From assembly GCF_964213995.1 (NCBI RefSeq), contig NC_135806.1, positions 53,382,001 through 53,446,000 on the forward strand: DNA of 64,000 nucleotides, written 5' to 3'. Source of the DNA: Mustelus asterias (lineage: Eukaryota). Under the pieces are notes generated by a model. That model was not told the origin of the DNA. It ran no database searches and was given only the letters and a program-made list of their open reading frames with translations. Shown here piece by piece: positions 945-61,909 of the stretch (position 1 is the first letter of the stretch; each line of letters begins with the position of its first letter). Made by a program: the position numbers and the translations under genes.

Positions 945-1481
945 TCAGTTGGTAATCCAGCATGGTTAGCATGCCTGAACAGCTCTACTGGAAACAGGAA
1001 AGAGCCTATAGTTCGCGTGGACAAGAGGTGCTTGGGAGTGGTTAGTACAGAATGGTTGTAATGCATTGCTAACAGAGCACAAAGTCTGGACTTTAGTGCA
1101 AGGGGGAATTTAGGAGCGTAGAGGGAGAAAATGCTGCTTTTTGCCTCCCATGCCTGCAGTGATTCATGCACAAATGAATGTACCTGTAATTTAAACTTAA
1201 ATCTATTTATAATAAAAGGCCAAAGTTGATTAAACATATACAGTCAGTCCCCATTTTAAGTTGCCTCAAAGTAATTTCACTTTAGTGTCATGGATTTAAT
1301 AGAGCCAGTAAATACACAACATAAAGCTGTTTGCTTTAGCATCGATGTGCACCAGCACTGATGGGCTTGTGTGACCCCGATCAGTGTCCATTTTTTAGCA
1401 GCCTCTCCTGTTCCCAGAAACAGTCACTCCCCAATTCTCTACCAGACTCTCCTTTTCACCACCCCTCTCCTGAGGCCTGGC

Positions 1482-2437
1482 TCCCGGAAGTCCATATCTG
1501 TGCCAGATGTGTGGAACTGCATCTCCTGAAGGATCGTGTAAGGGAGCTGGAGCTGAGGCTCGATGAACTCAGTTTAGTTAGGGAAAATGAGAGAGTCATA
1601 GATAAAAGTTATAGTCAGGTAGTGACACCAGGGTCTCGGAAGGAAGACACGTGGGTCACGGTTAGGAGGGGTAATAGTCAGAAGGGTGATGTGCCAGAAA
1701 GCACCCCAGTGGCAGTCTCCCATAAGAGAAAGGGATGGGCAACAGATGGGAGAAGGGAAGGGAGTGAGCAGTCTGTGGAGGGATCCCCTGTGGTTGTCCC
1801 CCTCCACAATAGGTATATTGTTTTGGATTCTGTGGAGGGGGATGACCCTCCAGGGGTAAGCCACGAGGACCAGATCGCCTCCACGGAGACAGGCTCAGGG
1901 GTCCGGAAGGGAAAGAAGGGGTTTAGGAGAGCGATAGTTGTGGGGGACGCAATAGTTAGAGGCACGGACAGGCGCTTCTGTGGGACTGAACGAGAATCCA
2001 GGATGGTAGTCTGCCTCCCTGGTGCCGGGGTACTGGATGTCTCCGAGGGGGTAGGAAGCATATTTAAAAAGGAAGGTAGTCAAACGGATGTGATTGTACA
2101 CATTGGGGGAAATGATGTAGGTAGGAAGAGCAGGGGGGTCATACGAGAGAAATTCAGGGAGTTGGGTGCTAGGCTAAAAAGTAAGACCTCCAGTGTAGCA
2201 ATCTCTGGACTGCTCCCGGTGCCTAGTGCAAGTGAGGCTCGGAACAGGGAGATTCTACAGTTGAACGCGTGGCTAAAGGACTGGTGCAAGAGGGAGGGTT
2301 TTAAATTCATAGATAACTGGGAAATCTTCAAGTCAGGATGGCAACTGTACAGAAAGGATGGGTTACACCTTAACTGGAAGGGAGCAAATATCCTGGCTGG
2401 GAGTTTTGCTCGAGTGTTTCGGCAGGATTTAAACTAG
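1482..2437 (+). CDS. CR1 ORF1: CxxC/leucine zipper plus SGNH esterase-like domain
   Basis: ICARC..LELRLDEL coiled coil; SGNH blocks GDAIVRG, HIGGND and DGLH. The ORF-track N-terminus (1361-1481) is probably flanking DNA. Confidence 0.85.
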
Positions 2438-5355
2438 TGTGGCAGGGGGGTGGGGAACAAAACAGGAGGTCAGAAAATACTGAGGCTGGGGTCGAGCTGG
2501 GGGCCAGGGCAAGGCTAGCTAAGAAGAGGAGCACTCTGGAGGAGGAGGACCTGACTGGGCCTGGAGGTCTGGAGTGCATCTGCTTCAATGCGAGGAGTGT
2601 AACGGGTAAAACAGACGAACTTAGGGCCTTAATGCTTGTGCGGAATTTGGATGTGGTTGCGGTGACGGAAACTTGGTTAAAAGGACAGGACTGGCAGCTG
2701 AATATTCCGGGGTATCAGTGTTTTAGGCGAGACAGAGGAGGGGCTAAAAAAGGTGGGGGAGTAGCGATATTAGTTAAGGAGCATATTACCGCGGTGCAGA
2801 GGGTAGACAACTTAGAGGGGTCATGTACTGAGTCGCTGTGGGTGGAACTCAGAAACAGGAAGGGTGCAGTCACTATGCTGGGGGTGTACTACAGGCCACC
2901 CAACAGCCCACGGGAAGTGGAGGAAAGGATATGTCAGGAGATTCTGGATAGGTGCAGAAAAAATAGGGTTGTTGTAGTGGGGGACTTTAATTTCCCTGGC
3001 ACAGACTGGAAAGTGCTTAGAGCTGGGGGACCGGACGGGGAGGAATTTGTAAAATGCGTACTGGAAGGTTCTTTGGAACAGTATGTAGATAGCCCGACTA
3101 GAGAGGGGGCTATACTGGACCTAGTTCTGGGAAATGAGCCCGGTCAGGTCGTCAAAGTTTCGGTAGGGGAACATGTGGCAAATAGTGACCACAACTCTGT
3201 TAACTTTAGGATAGTAATGGACAAGGATGAGTGCTGTCCTACGGGCAGGGTGCTAAATTGGGGGAAGGCTGACTATAGCCGGATTAGGCAGGAATTGGTG
3301 GATGTTGATTGGGAGAGGATGTTCGAGGGTAAGTCCGCGTCTGGCATGTGGGAGTCTTTTAAGGAACTATTGATAAGGCTGCAGGATAGGCATGTGCCTG
3401 TAAAAAGGAAAGATAGGAAAGGTAGGATTCGAGAGCCGTGGATAACCAGGGAAATTGAGGATCTGATTAAAATGAAAAGGGAGGCGTACGTTAAGTCCAG
3501 GCAACTGAAAACAGATGGAGCTCTGGAGGAATACAGAGAGAGTAGGAAAGATCTCAAACGGGGAGTTAGAAGGGCAAAAAGAGGGCACGAGATGTTCTTG
3601 GCAGGCAGGATTAAGGAGAATCCTAAGGCATTCTATTCATACGTTAGGAACAAAAGAGTTGTCAGGGAGAAAATCGGACCTCTCAGGGACAAAGGAGGGG
3701 AATTATGCTTAGAACCCAAGGGAATAGGGGAGATCCTAAATGAATACTTTGCATCGGTATTCACGAAGGAGAGGGGCGTGTTAACCGGGAGTGTCTCGGA
3801 GGGAGGTGTTGACCCGTTAGAGAAAATCTCCATTACGAGAGAGGAAGTGTTAGGTTTTTTAGGGAACATTAAAACTGACAAAGCCCCAGGGCCTGATGGC
3901 ATCTATCCTCGACTGCTCAGGGAGACGAGAGAGGAAATTGCTGGGCCTCTGACGGAAATCTTTGTCGCTTCTTTGGACACGGGTGAGGTCCCTGAGGATT
4001 GGAGGATAGCGAATGTGGTCCCGTTGTTTAAGGAGGGTAGCAGGGATAACCCAGGAAATTATAGGCCGGTGAGCTTGACGTCCGTGGTAGGGAAGTTGTT
4101 GGAGAGGATTCTTAGAGACAGGATGTATGTGCATTTAGAACGGAACAATCTCATTAGTGACAGACAGCATGGTTTTGTAAGAGGGAGGTCGTGCCTTACA
4201 AATTTGGTGGAGTTGTTTGAGGAAGTGACAAAAACGGTTGATGAAGGAAGGGTCGTGGATGTCGTCTATATGGATTTCAGTAAGGCATTTGACAAAGTCC
4301 CACATGGCAGGTTGGTTAAGAAGGTTAAGGCTCATGGGATACAAGAAGTGGCTCGATGGGTGGAGAACTGGCTTGGCCATAGGAGACAGAGGGTAGTGGT
4401 CGAAGGGTCTTTTTCCGGCTGGAGGTCTGTGACCAGTGGTGTTCCGCAGGGCTCTGTACTGGGACCTCTGCTATTTGTGATATATATAAATGATTTGGAA
4501 GAAGGTGTAACTGGTGTAATCAGCAAGTTTGCGGATGACACAAAGATGGCTGGAATTGCGGATAGCGAAGAGCATTGTCGGGCAATACAGCAGGATATAG
4601 ATAGGCTGGAAAATTGGGCGAAGAGGTGGCAGATGGAATTTAATCCGGATAAATGCGAAGTGATGCATTTTGGAAGAAATAATGTAGGGAGGAGTTATGC
4701 AATAAATGGCAGAGTCATCAGGAGTATAGAAACACAGAGGGACCTAGGTGTGCAAGTCCACAAATCCTTGAAGGTGGCAACACAAGTGGAGAAGGTGGTG
4801 AAGAAGGCATATGGTATGCTTGCCTTTATAGGACGGGGTGTAGAGTATAAAAGCTGGAGTCTGATGATGCAGCTGTATAGAACGCCGGTTAGGCCGCATT
4901 TGGAGTACTGCGTCCAGTTCTGGTCGCCGCACTACCAGAAGGACGTGGAGGCATTGGAGAGAGTGCAGAGAAGGTTTACCAGGATGTTGCCTGGTATGGA
5001 GGGTCTTAGCTATGAGGAGAGATTGGGTAGACTGGGGTTGTTCTCCTTGGAAAGACGGAGAATGAGGGGAGATCTGATAGAGGTGTACAAGATTATGAAG
5101 GGTATAGATAGGGTGAACAGTGGGAAGCTTTTTCCCAGGTCGGAGGTGACGATCACGAGGGGTCACGGGCTCAAGCTGAGAGGGGCGAAGTATAACTCAG
5201 ACATCAGAGGGACGTTTTTTACACAGAGGGTGGTGGGGGCCTGGAATGCGCTGCCAAGTAAGGTGGTGGAGGCAGGCACGCTGACATCGTTTAAGACTTA
5301 CCTGGATAGTCACATGAGCAGCCTGGGAATGGAGGGATACAAACGATTGGTCTAG
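2437..5355 (+). CDS. CR1 ORF2: APE endonuclease plus reverse transcriptase (972 aa open)
   Basis: CFNARS, ETW, GDFN and SDH endonuclease motifs; NYRPVSL, DFSKAFD, GVPQGSVLGP and FADD RT motifs. Confidence 0.95.
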   Translation: MWQGGGEQNRRSENTEAGVELGARARLAKKRSTLEEEDLTGPGGLECICFNARSVTGKTDELRALMLVRNLDVVAVTETWLKGQDWQLNIPGYQCFRRDRGGAKKGGGVAILVKEHITAVQRVDNLEGSCTESLWVELRNRKGAVTMLGVYYRPPNSPREVEERICQEILDRCRKNRVVVVGDFNFPGTDWKVLRAGGPDGEEFVKCVLEGSLEQYVDSPTREGAILDLVLGNEPGQVVKVSVGEHVANSDHNSVNFRIVMDKDECCPTGRVLNWGKADYSRIRQELVDVDWERMFEGKSASGMWESFKELLIRLQDRHVPVKRKDRKGRIREPWITREIEDLIKMKREAYVKSRQLKTDGALEEYRESRKDLKRGVRRAKRGHEMFLAGRIKENPKAFYSYVRNKRVVREKIGPLRDKGGELCLEPKGIGEILNEYFASVFTKERGVLTGSVSEGGVDPLEKISITREEVLGFLGNIKTDKAPGPDGIYPRLLRETREEIAGPLTEIFVASLDTGEVPEDWRIANVVPLFKEGSRDNPGNYRPVSLTSVVGKLLERILRDRMYVHLERNNLISDRQHGFVRGRSCLTNLVELFEEVTKTVDEGRVVDVVYMDFSKAFDKVPHGRLVKKVKAHGIQEVARWVENWLGHRRQRVVVEGSFSGWRSVTSGVPQGSVLGPLLFVIYINDLEEGVTGVISKFADDTKMAGIADSEEHCRAIQQDIDRLENWAKRWQMEFNPDKCEVMHFGRNNVGRSYAINGRVIRSIETQRDLGVQVHKSLKVATQVEKVVKKAYGMLAFIGRGVEYKSWSLMMQLYRTPVRPHLEYCVQFWSPHYQKDVEALERVQRRFTRMLPGMEGLSYEERLGRLGLFSLERRRMRGDLIEVYKIMKGIDRVNSGKLFPRSEVTITRGHGLKLRGAKYNSDIRGTFFTQRVVGAWNALPSKVVEAGTLTSFKTYLDSHMSSLGMEGYKRLV

Positions 5356-13494: not shown

Positions 13495-16400
13495 GGGATG
13501 CAAAGGTAGTAATCTCGGGATTGCTGCCTGTGCCGCGGGAGAGTGAGAACAGGAATCGGTGGAGAATGAATGCGTGGCTGAGGGACTGGAGCAAGGGACA
13601 AGGATTTGGGTACTTGGATCATTGGGACCTCTTTAGGGGCAGGTGTGACCTGTTTAAAAAAGACGGGTGGCACTTGAATCCCAGGGGGACCAATATCCTG
13701 GCGGGAAGGTTGGCTAAGGCTACTGGAGAGACTTTAAACTAGAAAGGTTGGGGGGAGGGAATCGAAATGAGGGGACTGAGAGCGAGGAGGTTAGCTCGCA
13801 AATAGATAAGGAATGTAGACAGGGTAAGAGGGAGGTTAGACGAGTGATGGAGAAGGGAAGTGCTCAGGCTGAAGGTCTGAGATGTGTCTATTTTAATGCC
13901 AGGAGTGTAGTGAATAAAGTGGATGAGCTTAGAGCGTGGATTGCTGCTTCGAATTGTGATGTGGTGGCCATTACGGAGACTTGGATGTCTCAGGGACAGG
14001 ACTGGGTGCTTCAGGTGCCGGGTTTTAGATGTTTCAGGAAGGACAGGGAGGGAGGCAAGAGAGGGGAGGGGAGTGGCACTGTTGATCAGGGATAGTGTCA
14101 CGGCTGTAGAGAAGGTGGACGCCGTGGAGGGATTGACTACGGAGTCTCTGTGGGTGGAGGTTAGGAACAGGAAGGGGTCGGTAACTTTGCTGGGTGTTTT
14201 CTATAGGCCGCCCAATAGTAACAGAGATGTTGAGGAGCAGATGGGGAAACAGATCCTGGAGAGATGTAGGAATAACAGAGTTGTCGTGATGGGAGATTTT
14301 AATTTCCCAAACATAGATTGGAATATCCCTAGGGCTAGGGGTTTGGATGGAGAGGAGTTTGTTAGGTGTGTCCAGGAGAGTTTCCTGACACAGTATGTGG
14401 ATAAGCCTACTAGAGGAGAGGCTGTACTTGATCTGGTGCTGGCTAATGAACCTGGACAGGTGGAGGATCTCTCGGTGGGTGAGCATCTTGGGGATAGCGA
14501 TCATAATTCTATCTCCTTCACGATAGCATTGGAAAGAGATAGGATCAGGCAGGCTAGGAAAGTGTTTCTCTGGAGTAAAGGGAAATACAGTGTCATCAGG
14601 GAGGAAATTAGACGGGTAAATTGGAAGGAGGCATTCTTGGGGAAAAGTACCGAAGGAAAGTGGAGGATTTTCAAGGAATGTTTGTCTGGAGCTCTGCATG
14701 ACAACGTTCCGATGAGACAGGGGGGTGTTGGTAGGGTACGGGAACCGTGGTGCGCGAAGGTTGTGATGAACCTGGTGAATAAGAAAAGAGAGGCGTACAG
14801 AAGGTTCAGAGAGCTAGGAGGTGTTAAGGATTTAGAGGAGTATACGGGATGTAGGAAGGAGCTTAAGAAGGAAATTAGGAGAGCGAGAAGGGGTCATGAG
14901 AAGACCTTGGCGGGTAAGATTAAGGAGAATCCCAAGGCTTTCTACAAATATGTCAAGAGTAAAAGGATGAGATGTGAAGGCATAGGACCCCTAAAAGGTG
15001 AAGGGGAAAAAGTTTGTGCGGAACCGTTAGAAATGGCGGAGGTGCTTAATGAATACTTTACCTCGGTATTCACAGTGGAAAGGGATCTGGGTGGTTGTAC
15101 TGCTGGTTTGCGGTGGACAGAAAGGATCGAGCATGTGGACATAAAGAAAGAGGATGTGTTGGAACTATTGAATGGCATCAAGGTTGGTAAGTCGCCGGGA
15201 CCGGATGGGATGTACCCCAGGTTACTGTGGGAGGCGAGGGAGGAGATTGCGGAGCCTTTGGCGATGATCTTTGCATCGTCGATGGAGACGGGAGAGGTTC
15301 CGGAGGATTGCAGATGTGGTCCCTATATTCAAGAAAGGGAACAGGGACAGCCCGGGAAATTACCGACCGGTGAGTCTAACCTCAGTGGTTGGTAAGTTGA
15401 TGGAGAGGATCCTGAGAGACAGGATTTATGATCATCTAGAGAAGTTTAGTATGATCAAAAGTAGTCAGCACGGCTTTGTCAAGGGCAGGTCGTGCCTTAC
15501 GAGCCTGGTTGAGTTCTTTGAAAATGTGACCAAACACATTGACGAAGGAAGAGCGGTGGATGTGGTCTATATGGACTTCAGCAAGGCGTTCGATAAGGTC
15601 CCCCATGCAAGACTTCTTGAGAAAGTGAGAGGGCATGGGATCCCAGGGGCTGTTGCCTTGTGGATCCAGAACTGGCTTGCCTGCAGAAAGCAGAGAGTGG
15701 CTGTGGAGGGGTCTTTCTCTGCATGGAGGTCAGTGACCAGTGGAGTGCCCCAGGGATCTGTTCTGGGACCCTTGCTGTTTGTCATTTTCATAAATGACCT
15801 GGATGAGGAAGTGGAGGGATGGGTTGGTAAGTTTGCTGACGACACCAAGGTAGGTGGTGTTGTGGATAGTTTGGAGGGATGTCAGAAGTTGCAGCGAGAC
15901 ATAGATAGAATGCAAGACTGGGCGGAGAAGTGGCAGATGGACTTCAACCCGGATAAGTGTGTAGTGATCCATTTTGGCAGATCCAATGGGATGAAGCAGC
16001 AATATAATATGAAGGGTACCATTCTTAGCAGTGTAGAGGATCAGAAGGACCTTGGGATCTGGGTCCATAGGACTCTTAAATCGGCCTCGCAGGTGGAGGA
16101 TGCGGTCAAGAAGGCGTACGGCGTACTGGCCTTCATTAATCGAGAGATTGAGTTTAGGAGTCGGGAGATAATGCTGCAGCTTTATAGGACCCTGGTTAGA
16201 CCCCACTTGGAGTACTGCGCGCAGTTCTGGTCACCTCATTACAGGAAAGATGTTGAAGCCATTGAAAGGGTGCAGAGGAGATTTACAAGGATGTTGCCTG
16301 GATTGGGGGGCATGCCTTATGAGGATAGGTTGAGGGAGCTTGGTCTCTTCTCCCTGGAGAGACGAAGGATGAGAGGTGACCTGATAGAGGTTTACAAGAT

Positions 16401-16732
16401 GTTGAGAGGTCTGGATAGGGTAGACTCTCAGAGGCTATTTCCAAGGGCTGAAATGGTTGCTACGAGAGGACACAGGTTTAAGGTGCTGGGGGGTAGGTAC
16501 AGAGGAGATGTCAGGGGTAAGTTTTTCACTCAGAGGGTGGTGGGTGAGTGGAATCGGCTGACGTCGGTGGTGGTGGAGGCAAACTCGTTGGGGTCTTTTA
16601 AGAGACTTCTGGATGAGTACATGGGATTTAATGGGATTGAGGGCTATATATAGGCCTAGAGGTAGGGATATGATCAGCGCAACTTGTGGGCCGAAGGGCC
16701 CGTTTGTGCTGTGGCTTTCTATGTTCTATGTT
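13495..16732 (+). mobile_element. CR1 LINE (second family): end of ORF1 plus ORF2 with two frameshifts
   Basis: ORF1 end (ISGLLPV..DGWHLN..TLN*). ORF2 is split over 13748-14095, 13923-15395 and 15271-16653. FADD motif; ttctatg tail repeats. Confidence 0.92.
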
Positions 16733-33368: not shown

Positions 33369-33597
33369 ATTATTAAAAAAAATTAATTCTAAATAGGAAG
33401 GGTGTGTCATGAGAAAAACTTTCTATACAAATGCAGAGCTCTTCAATTCAAGCTTTATCCAAGATCTCATGTCTCCACTTACTTTTAAATGACGACTCTC
33501 GTTTAGGAACAGACATTTGATACACCCTGACCGATCAGTGGGTAAATACATCACACAGCTAATTGAGTCCTTCAGGCCACCTTTCACTCTCCGTTCC

Positions 33598-36127
33598 AGC
33601 GCTGGTGATAGAGCGTTCATCAAGTCAGAGGTGCGACGTCTCCTGGGGGAGGGGATCATTGAGGCCAGTACCAGTCCCTGGAGAGCCCAAGTGGTGGGTG
33701 TCAAGACTGGGGAGAAACTTTGCATGGCCATGGACTACAGTCAGACCATCAACCGATACACGCAACTGGACGCGTATCCCCTTCCCCGCATATCTGACAT
33801 GGTCAATCAGATTGCGCAATATCGGGTGTTCTCCACCATTGATTTGAAGTCTGCATACCACCAGCTCCATATCGGCCCGGAAGACTGCCAATACACTGCC
33901 TTCGAGGCGGATGGCCGTCTCTACCACTTCCTTCGGGTCCCCTTCGGCGTCACCAGCGGGGTCTCGGTTTTCCAGCGTGAGATGGACCGAATGGTGGACC
34001 AGAACGGGCTGCGGGCCACCTTCCCGTACCTGGATAATGTCACCATCTGCGGCCACGATCAGCAGAACCACGACGCCAACCTCCAAAAGTTCCTCCACAC
34101 TGCGGCACTCCTTAACCTGACCTACAATAAGGAGTAGTGTGTATTCCGTACGCGCCGCCTCGTCATCCTTGGTTGTGTTGTGGAGAACAGGGTCATCAGC
34201 CCTGACCCCGACTGCATGCGTCCCCTCCTGGAACTTCCCCTCCCCACCACCCTCAAAGTGCTGAGGAGATGCCTCGGCTTCTTCTCATACTACGCCCAGT
34301 GGGTCCCCAATTATGCGGACAAAGCCCGTCCGCTCATCAAATCCACATCTTTTCCCCTAGCGGTGGAGGCCCGGCTGGCCTTTGACCGCATCAAAGCGGA
34401 TATCGCGAAGGCCACGATGCACGCCGTAGACGAATCCACCCCATTCCAGGTGGAGAGCGATGCGTCTGACTTTGCCCTAGCCGCCACTCTTAACCAGGCG
34501 GGCAGATCCGTGGCCGCTTTCCCGCACACCCTCCAGTGCCCTGAAATTCGACACTCCTCTGTCGAAAAAGAGGCACAAGCCATCGTGGAGGCGGTGCGGC
34601 ACTGGCGCCACTACTTAGCTGGCAAATGGTTCACCCTGCTCACGGACCAACGGTCCGTTGCCTTTATGTTCAGCAACGCGCAGCAGGACAAAATCAAGAA
34701 CGACAAAATTTTGAGGTGGAGGATCGAGCTCTCCACCTACAATTACGACATTTTATACCGGCCTGGGAAGCTCAATGAGCCCCCAGACGCCCTGTCCTGG
34801 GGGACCTGTGCCAGCGCGAACCTAGACCGGTTACAGACTCTCCACGATGATCTCTGCCACCCGGGGGTGACCAGGTTCTTTCATTTCATCAAGGCCCGGA
34901 ACCTGCCCTATTCCGAGGAAGTCAGGTCTGTAACCAGGCACTGCCAAGTCTGCGCGGAGTGCAAGCTGCACTTCTACCGACCAGACAGAGCGCACCTCAT
35001 CAAAGCCACCCGCCCTTTCGAACGCCTGAGCGTAGACTTCAAAGGCCCCCTCCCCTCCTCTAACTGCAATGTCTACTTCCTCAAATGTTGTTGATGAGTA
35101 TTCGCAGTTCCCCTTTGCTATCCCCTGCCTGGATATGACCTCGGCCACGGTCATCAGGGCCCTGCACAGCCTCTTCACCCTGTTTGGTTTCCCCAGCTAT
35201 ATTCATAGCGACCAGGGGTCCTCTTTTATGAGTGACGAGCTGCGCCAGTACCTACTCTCCCAAAGGCATAGCCTCGAGAAGGACCACCAGCTCCAACCCC
35301 AGGGGGACGGACAGGTGGAGAGGGAGAATGCGACAGTCTGGAAGGCTGTTTTATTTGCTCTCCGGTTTAAGGGTGTTCCAGTCTCCCGCTGGCAAGAAGT
35401 CCTCCCTGATGCGCTACACTCAATTAGGTCACTACTGTGCACGGCTACCAACGCCACCCCGCATGAACGAATGTTTGTTTTCCCCAGGAAGTCCTCCTCG
35501 GGGACCTCACTACCATCATGGCTGACGTCCCCTGGCCCTGTCCTGCTCCGGAAGTACGTGCAGACCCATAAATCGGACCCCCTGGTCGAAACGGTCCGGC
35601 TCCTCCATGCCAATCCCCAATACGCCTATGTGGCACGCTCATTTAGCCCCAGTGTACGGCACGCCTGAGCCCCAGGAGCAGCCTCCACACACCCGGCAGT
35701 CTGAAGGCGCTATGGACGACACCACCGGTTATGGATTGGCGCCTGACTCATCACCGCGGCCTCCTGAACCGGCGCCACGGCTGACACTGCGGCGGTCGCA
35801 GCGGCAGATCAAGCCCCCGGAGAGACTGAACTTGTAACTTGAATCAGTAACTTGTGACTGTTGTTTCCACCACCTCGCCACCACTGAACTCTTTTTAAAC
35901 AGGGGGTGAATGTGGTGAACCACTGTAACAGTGTGTGTGGGATGTGACTGGGCACGCCCCTGCTGCCTTGGTCCGGGGCTCCGCCCTCCTCGGGGTATAA
36001 AGGTGGCTGCTCTCCGCCCCATTGCCTCAGTTCGAGTTGGCCATCGGTTTGGGAGTGCTTCTGTCCTTGTTAATAAAAGCCTGTTGTTCCGCAACCTCTC
36101 GTCTTTGCGTGCATCAATTTTGCATCA
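33598..36127 (+). mobile_element. 5'-truncated Gypsy element (RT-RH-IN, PPT, 3' LTR 35911-36127), disrupted
   Basis: pol is homologous to 58202-61267 (YLDN, SDASD, SVDFKG) with a stop at 34135 and frameshifts. PPT aaacagggggtgaa; LTR TGTGG...GCATCA; flanked by 48-bp direct repeats. Confidence 0.9.
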
Positions 36128-37095: not shown

Positions 37096-38311
37096 TGATG
37101 CGCGTCAATGAGCACATGGAATCAAGGCTTTGGTATTGAAGGCTTTAATACAGTAACAATGGAACTACTAACACGAATACACCAGTTCAGACTGAAGGGG
37201 TCCTGCCGGAGCAGGGGGTCTTATACCCTGCCACCGGAGGCGGGACCCCACTGGAATGTGCCACGATAACTCTCATAACAGGTAAACACCCTAACCCAAC
37301 AACATAGTACAACCCCCACAGTAATAACACCCTAGCCCAACAGTAACATGGTAACAAACCCCAGTGGTGAACCAACGATGGTTCACCACATTCACCCCTC
37401 CTTTAGGAACAAAAGGTGGCGGGGTGGACGAAAAACAGACAATAACAAAAAAAGTCACAGGATTCACAAGTCCAGACGGTCTGGAGGACCGCACCGACGC
37501 TGCGATCTCCTCAACACCGGTTGCGAAACCGGAGCAGGTGCCGATCTCTTCAACACCGGTTGCGAAAACGGAGCAGGTGCTTGTGGTGGCTCTCTTAACG
37601 TAATGTCTGGCTGTCCCCTCAAGGACTCCCGGGCCGGCCGGCCCTGGTGAGGCGATGGTGCAGGAGCTCATTGGCATAATCCTCTATGGTTTCGCCCGAC
37701 TGCCGACGTCGTGTAGCGAGGAGGTAACGAGCATGTATCTCGTTGGGTGGCATAATGTACCTATTCTTTAGGAGCTCGACGGCACCCTGGTAAGTGGGAA
37801 CTGCACGAATGGCTAGGTAAATCGTGTCGCTTACCCTCGCGTGGAGGACCTGGAGTCTATCACTGTCCGTAGTGATAGCTACCGAGGCTGCCAGGTAGTC
37901 CTCAAAGCACTTCCACCAATGGTCGAATGTGTTAGCTGCACCGACCGCACGTGGGTCCAGTGTCAGACGATCCGGTTTTAGGATCTGTTCCATACTCTCT
38001 GTTTACTGTATTAAATTGATGCGCGTCAATGAGCACATGGAATCAAGGCTTTGGTATTGAAGGCTTTAATACAGTAACAATGGAACTACTAACACGAATA
38101 CACCAGTTCAGACTGAAGGGGTCCTGCCGGAGCAGGGGGTCTTATACCCTGCCACCGGAGGCGGGACCCCACTGGAATGTGCCATGATAACACTTATAAC
38201 AGGTAAACACCCTAACCCAACAACATAGTACAACCCCCACAGTAATAACACCCTAGCCCAACAGTAACATGGTAACAAACCCCAGTGGTGAACCAACGAT
38301 GGTTCACCACA
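37096..38311 (-). mobile_element. Internally deleted, non-autonomous Gypsy element with two 295-bp LTRs
   Basis: LTRs 38017-38311 and 37096-37390 differ at about 3 positions. TSD GTTAC at 37091-37095 and 38312-38316. PPT present; gag N-terminus joined to the pol end. Confidence 0.95.
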
Positions 38312-39344
38312 GTTACCCATTATTTCCTTATTGCAGCCTTATTTGCATTGGCACAACTGACAAAAGTTCAAAAATCACCTGATTCTGCTTTGTTCCTGAT
38401 TTTAGTTTTTTTTTTCCTCTGCAGGCTCTTCACCGGAAGCCCTGGCACTCTGTTCATAGCTAATATTCACACTGCTCGGTTCTTCATGGACTTGAAGGAA
38501 TTGCCAGTGTTCTCTCCGGCAGATTCAGAGGAGAGATCCAGGCCAGTAGCTTTGTCAACTTTTTTGATGTCTCTGGCCCCCTCTTTCACATAACAAAATG
38601 ATCTATATCTACAATTGGCTTAACCGAAAACGGAAGGATGCTTGGCACCAAGGGTGGCGTACAGGGTACGTTGACTTGTTCATTCTTGCCTCGTGGTCAA
38701 ACACTGTACTGCAGTGAGTATTTACCCAGAGAGAATATGGAAAAAAGATCAGGTGATCTTTGGCGATCCAGTTTTGAATATCCCATCAGTCACCCACAGG
38801 TCACAACCAAACGATGTCTGTATAAAAGCATTTCCCCTAGTTTTACTAATTATGTGCAACAGTGCGGGCACATCTTTTGAAACACCGAATGCATGCTGTC
38901 TTTTCCCTTTTCAAACTGGACATAAGACAGTCTATTATTGTTGCAAGAAACTAGGCAGCGAATTAAAAGTCAATACCACCTCACTTGCAAGGAAATAATT
39001 TTAGTCCTCAGTTACTAACCCATAGGTTACACTGCAAACTGCGATCATGAACGGAAGTGGGATTGGGAGTTTAATTAATGCTATAAAGTGTAACTATGTG
39101 CTTCACAGGAGTACTTGAAGCATTTGGCAACTGTTCAGACAGGCCAGCTTATGTCTAAGCTTCACATTTTTTGGCCTGCAAATTACAAATGAAACTATAT
39201 GAGAACAGTCATGCAACAATTCATGCTTCAACCTTTAAATCAATCAATGGAACATATAACAGAATTCAGTTAAAAAGAATCAACATAAATTTAACCCATC
39301 CTTGTCTTGCATGAAGATTTGTGTTTTATGGCACATTAGCACTA

Positions 39345-42608: not shown

Positions 42609-44590
42609 ATAGAATCAGAGGTTTACAGCATGGAAACAGGCCCTTCGGCCCAACTTATCCATGCCGCACTTTTTTTGTTAATACCCCTAAGCTAATCCCA
42701 ATTGTCTGCATTTGGCCCACACCCCTCTATACCCATCGTACCCATGTAACTATCCAAATGCTTTTTAAAAAACAAAATTGTACCCGCCTCTACCACTACC
42801 TCTGGCAGCTTGTTCCAGACACTCACCACCCTGTGTGTGAAAAAATTGCCCCTCTGGACACTTTTGTATCTCTCCCCTCTCACCTTAAACCTATGCCCTC
42901 TAGTTTTAGACTCCCCTGCCTTTGGGAAAAGATATTGACTATCTAGCTGATCTGTGCCCCTCATTATTTTATAGACCTCTACAAGATCATCCCTCAGCCT
43001 CCTACGCTCCAGAGAAAAAAGTCCCAGTCTATCCAGCCTCTCCTTATAACTCAATCCATCAAGTCCCGGTAGCATCCTAGTAAATCTTTCCTGCACTCTT
43101 TCTAGTTTAATAATCTACTTTCTATAATAAGGTGACCAGAATTGCACACAGTATTCCAAGTGTGACTTTGCCAATGTCTTGTACAACTTCAACAAGACAT
43201 CCCAACTCCTGTATTCAATGTTCTGACCAATGAAACCAAGCATGCCTAATGCCTCCTTCACCACTCTGTCCACCTGTGACTCCACTTTCAAGGAGCTATG
43301 AACATGTACCCCTCGATCTCTTTGTTCTGTAACTCTCCCCAACGCTCTACCATTAACTGAGTAAGTCCTGCCCTGGTTCAATCTACCAAAATGCATCACC
43401 TCGCATTTGTCTAAATTAAACTCCATCTGCCATTCGTCAGCCCACTGGCCCAATTGATCAAGATCTTGTTGCAATTGGCGATAACTTTCTTCACTGTCCA
43501 CAATGCCACCAATCTTGATGTCATCTGCAAACTTACTAACCATGCCTCCTATATTCTCATCCAAATCATTAATATAAATGACAAATAACAGTGGACCCAG
43601 CACTGATCCCTGAGGCACACCGCTGGTCACAGGCCTCCAGTTTGAAAAACAACTCTCTACAACCACCCTCTGGCTTCTGTCAAGAAGCCAATTTTGTATC
43701 CAATTGGCTACCTCACCCTGGATCCCGTGAGATTTAACCTTATGCAACAACCTACCATGCAGTACCTTGTCAATGGCCTTGCTAAAGTCCATGTAGACAA
43801 CATCAACTGCACTGCCCTCATTTACCTTCTTGGTTACCCCTTCAAAAAACTCAATTAAATTTGTGAGACGTGATTTTCCACTCACAAAGCCATGCTGCCT
43901 GTCCCTAATCAGTCCTTGCATCTCTAAATGCCTGTAGATCCTGTCTCTCAAAATACCTTCCAACAATTTACCCACCACAGATGTGAGGCTCACTGGCCTG
44001 TAGTTCCCAGGCTTTTCCCTGTAGACCTTTTTAAACAAAGGCACAACATTTGCCACTCTCCAATCTTCAGGCACCTCACCCGTGACTATCGATGATTCAA
44101 TTATCTCAGCTAGGGGACCAGCAATTTCCTCCCTAGCCTCCCACAATGTCCTGGGATACACTTCATCAGGTCCCAGGGATTTATCTACCTTGATGCGCTT
44201 TAAATCTTCCAGCACCTCCTCCTCTGTAATATATACACTCCTCAAGACATCACTATTTATTTCCCCAAGTTCTCTAACATCCATGCTTTTCTCAACAGTA
44301 AATACTGATGAGAAATATTCATTTAGGATCTCACCGATCCCTTGTGGATCCACATATAGATGACCTTGTTGATCTTTAAGAGGCCCTACTCTCTTCTCTC
44401 CCTTGTTACTCTTTTGCCCTTTATGTATTTGTAGAAGCTCTTTGGATTCTCCTTTGCCTTATCTGCCAAAACAATCTCGTGTCCCCTTTTTGTCCTCCTG
44501 ATTTCTCACTTAACTCTACTCCTACACCCTCTATACTCTTCAAGGGATTCACTTGATCCCAGCTGCCTATGCATGTCTTGTGCCTCTTAC
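42609..44590 (-). mobile_element. CR1 LINE, 5'-truncated (RT part of ORF2)
   Basis: ORFs 43115-44353 and 42692-43096 with NYRPVSL, GVPQGSVLGP and FADD; CR1 tail at 42609-42660. Confidence 0.92.
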
Positions 44591-56480: not shown

Positions 56481-57118
56481 TTTTAAAAAGCTTAAAACTT
56501 GAACTGTCGTCCTGAAGATTTATTCCCTTCAAGGCCCATCCAACTTCTTTCGGAATTCCAATCGAGAAGGTTACATTCACACACATTTTAAGAACAGAAG
56601 CCATGCACCAGCCGTGACCAACAATTACAAATCCCACCCAGAGATATTTCTACTTTGAGCAGTGTTGTGAAAGGCAGCAACTTATTCACTGGAAAACTCG
56701 ACAACATTACAGCATATGACACTGTTCCATTTACAAATGCAATTTATTTTGGCTTGTATCTGTTTACAACACCGTTACGGACAAGAGCGACAGGCAAACT
56801 GCACTGATTGCTTCTCACCACCCGTCCGTAAGCAGAAGCCGTTTTGTAATAATTTTAAGCACGCTTGGCATGGTTTTCCAATCCCTGTGTGAGAGAGATC
56901 TCATTTACTAATAGCCCACGGGAGACTCACGTTACGATTAATGCAGAAGATTAGTGTGGTGAACCATCGTTGGTTACCACTGGGGGTTGTTATTATGTTA
57001 CTGTTGGGCTAGGGTGTTGTTACTGTGGGGGTTGTACAATGTTGTTGGGTTAGGGTGTTTACCTGTTATAAGTGTTATCATGGCACATTCCAGTGGGGCC
57101 CCGCCTCCGGTGGCGAGG

Positions 57119-57200
57119 TATAAGACCCTCTGCTCCAGCAGGACCCCTTCAGTCTGAACTGGTGTATTCGTGTTAGTAGTTCCATTGTTACACAATAAAA
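57119..57200 (+). promoter_or_regulatory. LTR TATA box, initiator and poly(A) signal
   Basis: TATAAGA at 57119, TCAGTCT initiator at 57149-57155 (about 30 nt downstream), AATAAA at 57194-57199. Confidence 0.6.
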
Positions 57201-57295
57201 GCCTTCAATATCGAAGCCTTGGTTCCACGTGCTTGATTGTCGCGCATCAATTTTATTGTGTAACAGAAAACTCTCAGCTGTACAAAAAAAAGAGT

Positions 57296-58162
57296 ATGGA
57301 ACAGATCTTAAAACCAGATCGTCTGGCGCTGGACCCATGTGCGGTCGGTGCCGCTAACACCTTCGACCACTGGTGGAAGTGTTTCGAAGACTACCTGGCT
57401 GCCTCTGTAGCTATCACTACAGACAGTGACAAACTCCAAGTCCTCCATGCAAGGGTAAGCGACACGATTTATCTCACGATTCGTGCGGCTCCCACTTACC
57501 CGAGGGCCGTCGAGCTCCTGAAGAAACGATACACGAAACCACCCAACGAGATACACGCTCGTTACCTCCTCGCGACACGACGTCGGCAGTCGGGCGAAAC
57601 CATGGAGGACTACGCCAATGAGCTCCTGCAGCTTGCCAGGGGTTGCGATTGTAAAGACGTATCAGCCGAACAATATATGTACGACCTCGCCCGAGACGCG
57701 TTCGTAGCAGGGGTAGGGTCCTCGTACATCAGGCTTAAATTGCTGGAAAGGGGGAACCTCGACTTGACCCAAGCGATGGAGATGGCTGAGATGCTGGAAG
57801 CGGCGTCGAAAAGCTTGGCGCTGTACCCCGAGGACCACGTGCAGTCAACGTGGCAGGAGCAAGCTCAGCTCCCTCCTCGCCCCGCTAACCCGCGCTCCCA
57901 GATCGATCCAACGACGGCGGCAGCTCCAGGTGGCCAGCGATGCTATTTTTGTGGTGGGGCCAAGCATCCACGGCAACAGTGTCCGGCAAGAACGGCTATC
58001 TGCAGCCAGTGCGGTAAAAAAGGCCACTACGGTAAAGTCTGCAGGTCGAAGTCTAAAAACGGCAGTGCAGCTTGTAACCCTCCAGAACGGAGACAATCTC
58101 CTTCGGCGTCGCAGTACCCACGAGGTCCGACCACGTGCGAACCCAGGACGGCGCCATCGTGA
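57296..58162 (+). CDS. gag: Gag with two CCHC zinc knuckles
   Basis: ATG at 57296 (MEQILKPD, shared with the 37096 element); CYFCGGAKHPRQQC and CSQCGKKGHYGKVC. Confidence 0.92.
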   Translation: MEQILKPDRLALDPCAVGAANTFDHWWKCFEDYLAASVAITTDSDKLQVLHARVSDTIYLTIRAAPTYPRAVELLKKRYTKPPNEIHARYLLATRRRQSGETMEDYANELLQLARGCDCKDVSAEQYMYDLARDAFVAGVGSSYIRLKLLERGNLDLTQAMEMAEMLEAASKSLALYPEDHVQSTWQEQAQLPPRPANPRSQIDPTTAAAPGGQRCYFCGGAKHPRQQCPARTAICSQCGKKGHYGKVCRSKSKNGSAACNPPERRQSPSASQYPRGPTTCEPRTAPS

Positions 58163-61100
58163 CTGACGGAGGAGGAGGAAGACCACCAGGAGTCGCTGCG
58201 TTTGGCGCCCTCGCCCACGTGCGATTCATGGGGGCGGCCATCATGGTCCACGACGACTAGGAGCGACCAGCAGGGGTCCTCAGCATCAACATCGGCAGCA
58301 TGCAGTGACGCCCAGGGGCCAACGGTGGCGTCGATCTCCCTGGACCAGACTAAGCACCACAGGCTTGAGAATTCCATGATGGATATAAAGGTAAATGGTC
58401 GAACTGTGAATTGTCTGTTTGACAGTGGGAGCACCGAAAGTTTCATACACCCTGAAACTGCTAAACGGTGTGGACTCCGGGTTCTCCCTGCCAAGCAGAC
58501 AATTTCCATGGCATCACGGTCCCGGTCTGTACCGATCCAAGGACGATGTATGGTAACTCTTGAGGTACAGGGCACAATTTACGAGCAATACAGGCTCCTT
58601 GTGTTACCTCACCTTTGTGCGCCAATTCTCCTCGGACTAAATTTTATGGTCCACATGAAGAGTGTGATCCTACAGTACGGTGGGCCACTCCCTTCACTGG
58701 CAGTAGGGAATCAGCCGCAGCCTCCAAATTGCCCAAAGCGCCCCGCATGCAATCTTTCCACTCTGAAAATCACTACACCATCCCTCTTTAAGAATCTGGT
58801 ACCAGGCTGCAAGCCCATCGCTACTAAAAGTAGGCGTTACAGCGCTGAGGACCGGATCTTTATTAGATCTGAGGTTCAGCGGCTCCTCAAGGAAGGGATC
58901 ATACAGGCCAGTGCTAGTCCGTGGAGAGCGCAGGTCGTGGTAGTCAAAAGCGGGAACAAACCTCGGATGGTCATCGACTATAGTCAGACCATTAATCGTT
59001 ATACGCAGCTGGATGCGTATCCTCTCCCGCGCATTTCTGATATGGTCAATCAGATTGCGCAGTACCGAGTGTTCTCTACCATAGACCTTAAGTCCGCCTA
59101 CCATCAACTCCCCATCCGCCCAGAGGACCGACAATATACGGCTTTTGAGGCGGATGGTCGTCTATACCAATTCCTCAGGGTTCCATTTGGTGTCACCAAT
59201 GGGGTCTCGGTCTTCCAGCGTGCTATGGACCGAATGGTGGACCAGAACGGGTTGCGGGCTACCTTCCCGTACCTGGATAACGTCACCATCTGCGGCCATG
59301 ACCAGCAGGACCACGACACGAATCTCCAACACTTTCTGCGCACTGCATCTCGCCTGAACCTGACCTATAACAGGGAGAAGTGCGTATTCCGTACGCGCAG
59401 GTTAGCCATCCTCGGATACGTGGTGGAAAACGGGGTCATTGGCCCTGATCCAGACCGTATGCGCCCCCTTACTGAACTTCCCTTGCCCGCTAGCACGAAA
59501 GCACTGAGGAGATGCCTCGGATTCTTTTCGTACTATGCGCAGTGGGTCCCCAACTACGCGGACAAAGCTCGTCCGCTCATCAAGTCCACGACCTTCCCAC
59601 TTACGCCGGAGGCCCAATTGGTCTTCAAGGCTTTGAAAAGCGACATCTCGAAAGCCACGATGCACGCGGTGGATGAATCCATCCCTTTCCAGGTGGAGAG
59701 TGATGCATCTGATTTCGCCCTAGCCGCCACACTAAACCAGGCAGGCAGGCCCGTCGCGTTCTTTTCCCGCACCCTTCAAGGCCCAGAAATTCGGCACTCA
59801 GCGGTGGAGAAGGAGGCTCAGGCCATTGTGGAGGCAGTCAGACACTGGCGCCATTACCTGGCAGGGAAGCGGTTCACCCTGATCACGGATCAACGATCCG
59901 TGGCGTTTATGTTCAACACGCAGAGGGGCAAGATCAAGAACGATAAGATCTTGCGGTGGAGAATTGAGCTCTCCACCTATAATTACGATATTATGTATCG
60001 TCCAGGGAAGCTCAATGAGCCCTCGGATGCCCTCTCGCGCGGAACATGCGCCATCATGCAGGAGGACCGCTTGAAGGCCCTCCACAATGATCTGTGTCAT
60101 CCTGGAGTCACCAGACTCTACCATTTCGTCAAAGCCCGCAACCTGCCTTACTCGGTGGAGGATGTCAGGTCAGTGACGAGAAGCTGTCGGATTTGCGCAG
60201 AATGCAAACCACACTTTTATCGACCAGACCGGGCACAATTGGTCAAGGCCACTCGCCCTTTTGAGAGGCTGAGTGTGGATTTTAAGGGCCCCCTTCCCTC
60301 AACGGACCGGAACGTCTATTTCCTCAACATAATAGACGAGTACTCCCGGTTCCCGTTTGTTGTCCCCTGTGCGGACACGTCGACTGCCACCGTCATCAAG
60401 GCATTCAGTGAGCTTTTTACCCTGTTCGGGTACCCCTGCTACATTCATAGCGACAGGGGCTCGTCGTTCATGAGCAACGACTTGAGGCAATTCCTGCTCT
60501 CATTCGGGATTGCCTCTAGTAGAACCACGAGCTACAACCCTAGGGGTAACGGACAGGTGGAAAGGGAGAATGCTACAGTCTGGAAGGCTGTCCTACTGGC
60601 ACTGAAATCCAGGGGCCTTCCAGTCTCCCGTTGGCAGGAGGTCCTTCCAAATGCGCTCCATTCTATCCGCTCCCTCCTGTGTACGGCAACCAATGCTACT
60701 CCCCACGAGAGGATGTTCTCATTCCCTCGGAAGTCGTCCTCGGGGATCTCATTGCCAGCCTGGTTGACGTACCCAGGACCCGTCCTTCTGCGGCGCCATG
60801 TGAGGGCTCGCAGGTCCGACCCCTTGGTCGAACCGGTCCAACTCCTCCACGCCAACCCTCAGTATGCCTATGTGGCATATCCTGACGGGCGAGAGGACAC
60901 TGTCTCCATTAGAGACCTGGCGCCCGCAGGGGACGTAGCAACTCCTGTCGCTCCTATTCCCCCAGTCACGAATCCACTACTCCTCATTGCTTCCCCAGAC
61001 GTGGCGCGGTCAGCACCGGGACCAGTGCATAACAGTTCTACTCCCATGTACAGCTTGCCTGAGACTCGGAGATCGGCGCCACCACCGAAGGTTCCAGGAT

Positions 61101-61267
61101 CCCCTGCACCATCGCCTCACCAGGGCCAACCGGCCCGGGAGTCCTTGAGGGGACAGCCGGACGTTGTTTTGGAGAGAACGCCACCGCAAGCACCTGCTCC
61201 GGTTTCGCAACCGGTGTTGAGGAGATCACAGCGTCGGTGCGGTCCTCCAGACCGTCTGGACTTGTGA
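58163..61267 (+). CDS. pol: Pol (protease, RT, RNase H, integrase), in frame with gag
   Basis: LFDSGS; YPLP..DLKSAYHQ..PFG..YLDN; SDASD/EKE/TDQ; HHCC zinc finger and D,D,E core (SVDFKG, SDRG, ERE). Confidence 0.93.
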   Translation: MTEEEEDHQESLRLAPSPTCDSWGRPSWSTTTRSDQQGSSASTSAACSDAQGPTVASISLDQTKHHRLENSMMDIKVNGRTVNCLFDSGSTESFIHPETAKRCGLRVLPAKQTISMASRSRSVPIQGRCMVTLEVQGTIYEQYRLLVLPHLCAPILLGLNFMVHMKSVILQYGGPLPSLAVGNQPQPPNCPKRPACNLSTLKITTPSLFKNLVPGCKPIATKSRRYSAEDRIFIRSEVQRLLKEGIIQASASPWRAQVVVVKSGNKPRMVIDYSQTINRYTQLDAYPLPRISDMVNQIAQYRVFSTIDLKSAYHQLPIRPEDRQYTAFEADGRLYQFLRVPFGVTNGVSVFQRAMDRMVDQNGLRATFPYLDNVTICGHDQQDHDTNLQHFLRTASRLNLTYNREKCVFRTRRLAILGYVVENGVIGPDPDRMRPLTELPLPASTKALRRCLGFFSYYAQWVPNYADKARPLIKSTTFPLTPEAQLVFKALKSDISKATMHAVDESIPFQVESDASDFALAATLNQAGRPVAFFSRTLQGPEIRHSAVEKEAQAIVEAVRHWRHYLAGKRFTLITDQRSVAFMFNTQRGKIKNDKILRWRIELSTYNYDIMYRPGKLNEPSDALSRGTCAIMQEDRLKALHNDLCHPGVTRLYHFVKARNLPYSVEDVRSVTRSCRICAECKPHFYRPDRAQLVKATRPFERLSVDFKGPLPSTDRNVYFLNIIDEYSRFPFVVPCADTSTATVIKAFSELFTLFGYPCYIHSDRGSSFMSNDLRQFLLSFGIASSRTTSYNPRGNGQVERENATVWKAVLLALKSRGLPVSRWQEVLPNALHSIRSLLCTATNATPHERMFSFPRKSSSGISLPAWLTYPGPVLLRRHVRARRSDPLVEPVQLLHANPQYAYVAYPDGREDTVSIRDLAPAGDVATPVAPIPPVTNPLLLIASPDVARSAPGPVHNSSTPMYSLPETRRSAPPPKVPGSPAPSPHQGQPARESLRGQPDVVLERTPPQAPAPVSQPVLRRSQRRCGPPDRLDL

Positions 61268-61909
61268 ATTCTGTATATATGACCTGTTTTTTTCTTGCAC
61301 CCCGCCGCCTTTTGTTTTTAAAGGAGGGGTGAATGTGGTGAACCATCGTTGGTTACCACTGGGGGTTGTTATTATGTTACTGTTGGGCTAGGGTGTTGTT
61401 ACTGTGGGGGTTGTACAATGTTGTTGGGTTAGGGTGTTTACCTGTTATAAGTGTTATCATGGCACATTCCAGTGGGGCCCCGCCTCCGGTGGCGAGGTAT
61501 AAGACCCTCTGCTCCGGCAGGACCCCTTCAGTCTGAACTGGTGTATTCGTGTTAGTAGTTCCATTGTTACACAATAAAAGCCTTCAATATCGAAGCCTTG
61601 GTTCCACGTGCTTGATTGTCGCGCATCAATTAGTTCACTTCACATTCGAAACCCAGGGGGAGAGACACACAATACTACACTGTGGAAGTGATAAAGGAGT
61701 TGTGCAACTGGTAACAGTACATGGGCCACAGAAATCACACTTAATTCGCATGATTTCCAGAGTCAGAATCGAAATGAGGGATTCTTTCACAGAGGTGTTT
61801 GAGTTCAGCTGGTTGAAGCCATTCTTTTTGTAGATGGTGCGGATACTGCCAATGAAGTAGGTACAAAGGGACTGGGCTGGTTCTGCAGGCAATGGTAGGA
61901 TATCTCCAA

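Follow-up and report, generated by a model that had tools for sequence, protein, structure and literature searches.

The reverse transcriptase (RT) of a very abundant Ty3/Gypsy LTR retrotransposon, one copy of which lies in the Mustelus asterias DNA analyzed here, carries YLDN in place of YxDD in motif C. Asn at this position is a replicating state of the element's lineage, in which only Asp or Asn is tolerated there and the other two catalytic aspartates are fixed. Because of the copy counts, the stop-free copies, the identical LTRs, and an RT dN/dS of 0.07, we consider it very likely (a probability of roughly 85%) that the YLDN RT works in cis, that is, that the element is copied by its own enzyme with two catalytic aspartates. 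YxDN and YxDD have switched at least 8 to 14 times within this one deep animal Ty3/Gypsy lineage. Natural YxDN is already known from nematode BEL/Pao elements; what appears to be new is its independent and repeatedly switching occurrence in Ty3/Gypsy.

Structure of the window copy

The element occupies positions 56955 to 61628 (+) of the window, by which we mean the whole 64,000-nucleotide stretch that was analyzed, and is flanked by a 5-bp target duplication, ATTAG (56950 to 56954 on the left and 61629 to 61633 on the right). The 5′ LTR (56955 to 57249, +; 295 bp, TG...CA) contains a TATA-like box near 57119 and AATAAA at 57194 to 57199, and the 3′ LTR (61334 to 61628, +), which differs from it at a single base, directly follows a polypurine tract, AAAGGAGGGGTGAA (61320 to 61333, +). 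A tRNA-type TGG start is absent at the primer-binding position (57251 to 57265, +; TTTTATTGTGTAACA), whose sequence is the exact reverse complement of 57186 to 57200 (+; TGTTACACAATAAAA), the LTR arm of a fold-back that includes the poly(A)-signal hexamer.

The gag part (57296 to 58162, +) encodes two CCHC knuckles (57941 to 57982 and 58001 to 58042), and the pol frame (58163 to 61267, +; 1,034 aa) encodes protease (DSG at 58421), RT, RNase H (Asp at 59702), and integrase. Pfam protease, RVT_1, RNase H, and integrase domains were all found in the pol frame in the Ty3/Gypsy order, with integrase after RNase H; the element has no env, and the domain search gave no chromodomain match. An initial annotation, made from the sequence alone, had described a full-length copy with nearly identical LTRs. 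The LTRs bear this out, with one mismatch in 295 bp, but the copy, although of full size, is not intact: an in-frame TGA (58160 to 58162) parts gag from pol. Elements of the same family span 4.0 to 4.8 kb and have gag-pol as a single frame; the stop codon of the window copy was seen in none of 60 other YLDN copies, 33 of which are open past that point. A readthrough gag/pol stop as a family trait was accordingly rejected, the TGA being private to the window copy. In a check for insertion polymorphism, the 5′ junction flank of the window copy was covered by only one of the four contig sets compared.

RT motif C lies at 59270 to 59281 (+; TACCTGGATAAC, TAC CTG GAT AAC, encoding YLDN), and its Asn codon, AAC at 59279 to 59281, corresponds to the position of Ty3 D214: in a phmmer comparison with the Ty3 RT (4ol8; E = 2e-47), "yldnvti" aligned on "YLDDILI." The motif A aspartate (IDLKSAY) is at 59084 to 59086 (+). 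Upstream of it, at 58922 to 58933 (+), is WRAQ, a lineage signature that stands where Ty3 has CSSP and whose R and Q are invariant across 103 aligned proteins. YLDN is also encoded at 34027 to 34038 (+; TACCTGGATAAT, TAC CTG GAT AAT), within a diverged, broken pol of the same family (33493 to 35668, +) that has a stop and a frameshift. Both occurrences had been reported by the initial annotation and are confirmed by the sequence and by alignment on the Ty3 YLDD.

Relationship to known elements

The hallmarks of Ty3/Gypsy (Metaviridae) are present: a TG...CA LTR pair, a target-site duplication, a polypurine tract, and the order PR-RT-RNase H-IN. Ty3/Gypsy elements also typically have a primer-binding site complementary to a tRNA, with self-priming in some members; here the site has no TGG start and pairs with the element's own LTR. 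Among characterized RTs, that of Ty3 is the closest by sequence (E = 2e-47), followed by CaMV (8e-29) and MLV-type (2e-22) enzymes, while a fold search places the CaMV, Ty3, and MLV RTs about equal as matches to a model of the RT/RNase H (AlphaFold2; 369 residues; 103-row alignment). The model has a pLDDT of 95 and an ordinary RT/RNase H fold; it supports the fold only, since lineage-specific residues were not located on it. Where Ty3/Gypsy elements have YxDD in motif C, this element has YLDN, which we regard as a variant rather than as the sign of a different family because close sisters of the same lineage carry YxDD. Membership in BEL/Pao, whose markers include a triple Cys-His box in Gag and an integrase DD(45-53)E spacing (PMC554778), was not supported, given two CCHC knuckles in place of the triple box, a standard rve core, and the best match to Ty3.

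In its two CCHC arrays, in the position of integrase after RNase H, and in the lack of a chromodomain and env, the element agrees with the markers tabulated for Mag, Cigr-1, and Tor4 in PMC2774666, and its integrase "GPV" is compatible with both the GxV/I and the GPX forms given there. The homologs recovered include no named reference sequence of these clades. The accessible portions of the descriptions of the Mag A/B/C, Cigr-1, Tor4, and MolGy clades (PMC2774666, PMC6238403, PMC8556966, and PMC3601003) make no mention of YxDN or of a fold-back, and YLDN, WRAQ, and DYSQT had no match in four of the five supplement files of PMC6238403 and 11 of the 14 of PMC8556966. A scan of viral contigs gave no relatives of the element.

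The YLDN family in the M. asterias genome

Searched with an exact degenerate pattern, the 3.68-Gb assembly contained 10,352 matches to PYLDN(V/I)TICG and 19 to the YLDD version of the pattern; reversed controls gave 0 in both cases. Exact patterns of this kind miss diverged families. An independent RT motif pattern, WRAQVVVVK, gave 10,318 matches genome-wide, and because this is the same family size, essentially the whole family is YLDN. The other one-step A-to-G neighbors of YLDN were found 31 (YLDS) and 34 (YLGN) times. YLDD is thus at or below the level of random decay, because YLGN, at 34, is without an essential Asp.

All 19 YLDD copies were fetched for comparison with 60 YLDN copies, which were the first 65 on the list for contig C1 less five situated near another match. 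In a tree that also includes the window copy, 17 changes are needed to explain the D label, compared with 17.4 when labels are shuffled, and the nearest neighbor of a YLDD copy is a YLDN copy in 16 of 19 cases. Of the 60 YLDN copies, 10 have a stop-free gag-pol, defined as a frame open for at least 655 codons either side of the motif, as against none of the 19 YLDD copies. Among copies with a normal LTR pair, the LTRs were identical in 5 of 55 YLDN versus 0 of 15 YLDD copies and at least 99% alike in 13 of 55 versus 2 of 15 (medians, 98.3% and 97.8%). RT dN/dS among the 10 stop-free YLDN copies, which form non-independent pairs and were selected for being stop-free, had a median of 0.07 (range, 0.03 to 0.30, with dS reaching 0.37 and a defined value for 44 of the 45 pairs), similar to that of integrase and lower than those of gag and protease. 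The Asn codon is AAT in 15 of the 60 YLDN copies, including 2 of the 10 that are stop-free. That Asn had been kept across a synonymous AAC/AAT change was first argued from the two sites in the window. This pair alone is weak evidence, because AAC sits in a CpG, and its other member is a broken relative (33.5 to 35.7 kb); the genome-wide data make up for the weakness.

At about 4.7 kb each, the approximately 10,300 copies with an RT would make up roughly 1% of the assembly, and their LTR subfamilies number in the dozens (70 copies show 31 versions of the fold-back). Between subfamilies gag diverges faster than RT, which may reflect recombination. Two YLDD copies (L111 and L112; G000:C11, 61.94 and 62.00 Mb) are 99.7% alike, have the same target-site flanks, and lie 55 kb apart; a segmental duplication or a duplicate in the assembly, not transposition, probably accounts for them. 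Elsewhere in the family, the copies L165 and L175 are young, with almost identical coding regions (dS of 0).

Asn and Asp in other organisms

The motif was YxDN in 97, YxDD in 22, and YLNK in 1 of the best 120 of 1,045 homologs; the best named homologs are from Scyliorhinus, Hypanus, Narcine, and Mobula (80 to 84% identity). Metagenome loci (n = 80) comprised 48 YxDN, 29 xxDD, and 3 others, and many of the YxDN loci have LTRs that are 99 to 100% identical. Named hosts of YxDN elements are sharks and rays, the corals Oculina, Actinostola, Pocillopora, and Porites, and the tunicate Styela, while named YxDD sisters come from the damselfly Ischnura and the sea cucumber Apostichopus. Among the members that show it, the motif was uniform in each of the eight multi-member protein clusters checked (for example, 12 of 12 YIDN and 9 of 9 YLDD), six of which have at least six such members. 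All 63 covered rows below 40% identity have DD.

A FastTree phylogeny of 267 rows was built from full-length RT matches with the N/D column dropped; it includes 20 of the distant rows and 7 of the 20 loci from the M. asterias genome itself. A single branch with a support of 100 unites the rows above 40% identity, which comprise 159 N, 85 D, and 3 others; that is, D or N stands in 244 of 247 ingroup rows. This tree contains 24 N/D changes, 14 of them forced by well-supported branches, and a 57-row IQ-TREE phylogeny contains 11, of which 8 are forced. The initial annotation had asked whether YLDN defines a clade in an RT phylogeny. It does not: YxDN as a single clade was rejected by the AU test (P = 1e-24; LG+G4, no mixture model). 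Because the outgroup has D, the trees imply that N was gained and later returned to D, the number of each kind of change being uncertain. In the core of the lineage, N outnumbers D by 121 to 22 among 145 rows. The other two catalytic aspartates are fixed: of 125 non-redundant lineage members, 123 retain the Asp of motif A and 124 the first Asp of motif C. Proteins of this element also appear in public databases as bacterial (MAG) DDE integrases (P0010 and P0030), labels that likely reflect animal DNA in metagenome bins.

A fold-back at the primer-binding position

Across the family, the primer-binding position is occupied by the reverse complement of a stretch of the LTR that has the poly(A)-signal hexamer at its end. 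The two arms pair at 13 or more of 15 bases in 68 of 70 genome copies, among which there are 31 different versions; of the variable 8 bases, a mean of 7.5 pair with the copy's own LTR versus 3.7 with the LTRs of others. The stem is predicted for the 5′ context but not for the 3′ LTR. The fold-back may self-prime, hide the 5′ poly(A) signal, or do both. Lineage-wide, a co-varying fold-back of 13 to 19 bp is kept one base past the LTR end, with AATAAA, ATTAAA, or variants as the hexamer (L101 to L179 and L024 to L093).

The fold-back was found in most of the YxDN metagenome loci with true LTRs, and it is a trait of the lineage that does not track Asn, because the YxDD sisters L038 (16 bp), L066 (15 bp), L078 (13 bp), L082 (12 bp), and L093 (11 bp) have it too. 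The automatic stem search of the metagenome loci demanded AATAAA or ATTAAA and so missed stems with variant hexamers (L024, L031 to L034, L049, L069, and L093); its tally, 13 of 35 versus 4 of 15, is unusable as a rate because of these missed stems and because several "LTR pairs" are circular-assembly overlaps. We found no description of the fold-back in our searches of the open literature, and it may be more novel than YLDN itself. In Tf1-type self-priming, the primer-binding position likewise pairs with the element's own 5′ LTR transcript, and the paired arm is the first bases of the RNA; here, in contrast, about 40 nt separate the predicted start from the arm, which contains AATAAA or ATTAAA. 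The predicted hiding of the poly(A) signal in the 5′ LTR only is like that of the HIV-1 5′ poly(A) hairpin as generally described.

Alternative explanations

Were the YLDN RT dead or crippled, a YxDD element would have to mobilize the copies in trans. Transposition is lost in the corresponding Ty1 and Ty3 mutants (PMC2148107 and PMC5371799), 19 YLDD copies do exist in the genome, and an internally deleted copy in the window lacks RT, so that trans mobilization of family RNA is conceivable. We nevertheless hold this to be very improbable: YLDD copies are no more frequent than the equivalent A-to-G changes and are scattered on the copy tree, none is stop-free, and a dead RT would not retain its remaining catalytic residues and a dN/dS near 0.07. 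Of the 27 matches to a looser YxDD pattern (7 to its control), most are the decayed copies already counted, and the strict and looser patterns and the copy tree revealed no YxDD partner or master family genome-wide, although a distant helper could escape the looser pattern. The initial annotation had set its proposal that the lineage works with YLDN against two prospects, that most intact copies would carry YLDD and that a YxDD partner acts in trans. The counts (19 YLDD against 10,352 YLDN) and the failure of these searches to turn up a partner speak against both, and, with purifying selection on RT, the proposal is very likely right. It is hardly credible that the Asn is an artefact or that its codon is recoded by editing or deamidation, leaving Asp in the working enzyme. 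Deamidation of Asn to Asp is chemically possible, but genomic Asn is present in more than 10,000 copies and in many species, the residue after it is Val, Ile, or Leu rather than the Gly of the labile Asn-Gly, and packaged RNA edited from A to I would enter new insertions, among which YLDD copies are not enriched.

Asn could be an adaptation coupled to non-tRNA, fold-back priming, much as the initial annotation had tied it to the self-complementary primer-binding site. The fold-back is real, it accompanies most YxDN loci with true LTRs, and YxDN occurs only in the lineage bearing it; but the five YxDD sisters share it, and D and N alternate between close sister families. We therefore think such a coupling quite unlikely, and only a weaker form of it survives, in which the fold-back came first and the relaxed site followed. 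Asn could instead have been selected as an attenuator, a slower RT being favored in high-copy families or in certain hosts, with switching that is not neutral. The excess of N over D in the core of the lineage, the slight rarity of YLDD next to its neighbors (19 versus 31 and 34), and the lack of any expanded YLDD subfamily, though it is one step away, would fit this idea, which we still find unlikely, as several YxDD families with multiple copies sit within groups of N families, the query is itself N, so that sampling favors N, and the gap between 19 and 31 or 34 is small and context-dependent.

A probable two-aspartate RT and its precedents

If, as we favor, the YLDN RT copies its own element, then the two kept aspartates would bind the two metals, and the same-shaped Asn could keep the geometry and one oxygen. 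Changes elsewhere in RT or RNase H would likely form a permissive background, within which the slowdown seen in the Ty1 and Ty3 D-to-N mutants would no longer block transposition. At normally conserved places, the lineage differs from the outgroup and Ty3 in having WRAQ for CSSP, DYSQT for DY-RT, and NGV for NAP; judged from sequence, the chances are about even that these signatures are the reason the enzyme is active. The strongest raw association with N versus D was at RNase H position 314, which is N in 56 of 67 N-type but 10 of 55 D-type proteins (P = 2e-13). None of the top associations tested was significant (six of eight summaries; 12 independent pairs, low power), and the compensating RT or RNase H changes suggested by the initial annotation were not borne out to that extent. 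We infer the permissive background from the lineage-wide signatures because no residue tracks N versus D after phylogenetic control.

A more ambitious reading, which we offer tentatively and consider possible rather than probable, is that an unnamed, animal-wide Ty3/Gypsy lineage rebuilt its RT (WRAQ, DYSQT, and NGV) such that the third carboxylate became freely exchangeable. In this lineage a fold-back would serve for priming in place of a tRNA and at the same time conceal the 5′ poly(A) signal, and the two-aspartate enzyme would be efficient enough for a vertebrate genome to have acquired 10,000 copies. Negative-strand RNA virus polymerases, with their GDN motif, offer a parallel.

D-to-N versions of the Ty1 and Ty3 RTs polymerize without supporting transposition. 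Ty3 RT needs D151 and D213 for metal, and its D214N mutant retains polymerase activity, with low processivity, but is transposition-dead in vivo (PMC5371799). The element described here has the same fold and the same PR-RT-RH-IN order as Ty3, and its YLDN aligns with YLDD; unlike Ty3, with which it shares about 29% identity, it has a single gag-pol frame and no tRNA-type primer-binding site, and the Asn that is lethal for transposition in Ty3 is the normal residue in about 10,000 copies here. Ty1 D211N polymerizes but does not transpose, as the initial annotation had correctly stated, and its kpol is 223-fold lower; second-site suppressors in RNase H restore 5 to 10% of transposition (PMC2148107), which shows that a D-to-N change can be rescued by a background. 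That mutant is a laboratory product in a Ty1/Copia element, whereas the Asn here is natural and we found no RNase H residue covarying with it after phylogenetic control.

The second Asp of YxDD had been called almost invariant, which overstates the case: YVDN is found in Caenorhabditis elegans Cer7 to Cer12 (BEL/Pao; as cited in PMC554778) and in the Atlas virus element of the hookworm Ancylostoma, a BEL/Pao element with an intact frame and identical LTRs (PMC9094657). Whether YVDN in these nematode elements functions "remains to be determined" (PMC554778), and by the account of both papers no biochemical demonstration of its activity exists. The nematode elements share with our lineage a natural D-to-N change at the last YxDD position but belong to BEL/Pao, whereas the present element is Ty3/Gypsy, with two CCHC knuckles rather than three, no env, and many D/N switches. 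We found no report of YxDN in Ty3/Gypsy in our searches of the open full-text literature; curators may know the motif, because YxDN is visible in public proteins.

With its 10,000 copies, purifying selection, and no helper found, the lineage provides the strongest population evidence we have found that a YxDN RT supports full retrotransposition. Its natural D/N sister pairs with short branches (e.g., P0084/P0108, P0102/P0120, and P0072/P0112) allow the kinetics of unaltered proteins to be compared. Annotation rules that call any YxDN RT inactive would misclassify a large and widespread group of elements.

Other elements in the window

Besides the broken pol, the window contains the internally deleted copy of the family mentioned above (37096 to 38316, −), which is 1.2 kb long, has two LTRs that are 98% alike, and retains the beginning of gag and the last part of pol but no RT. 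Its poly(A)-signal hexamer is the variant ATTAAA, and the sequence at its primer-binding position co-varies. LINE copies with an esterase-like ORF1 and an endonuclease-RT ORF2 bearing a FADD motif lie at 1340 to 5355, 13914 to 16653, and 43115 to 44458; from their motifs we take them to be of the CR1/L2 type. In one of them, ORF2 is open over 993 codons.
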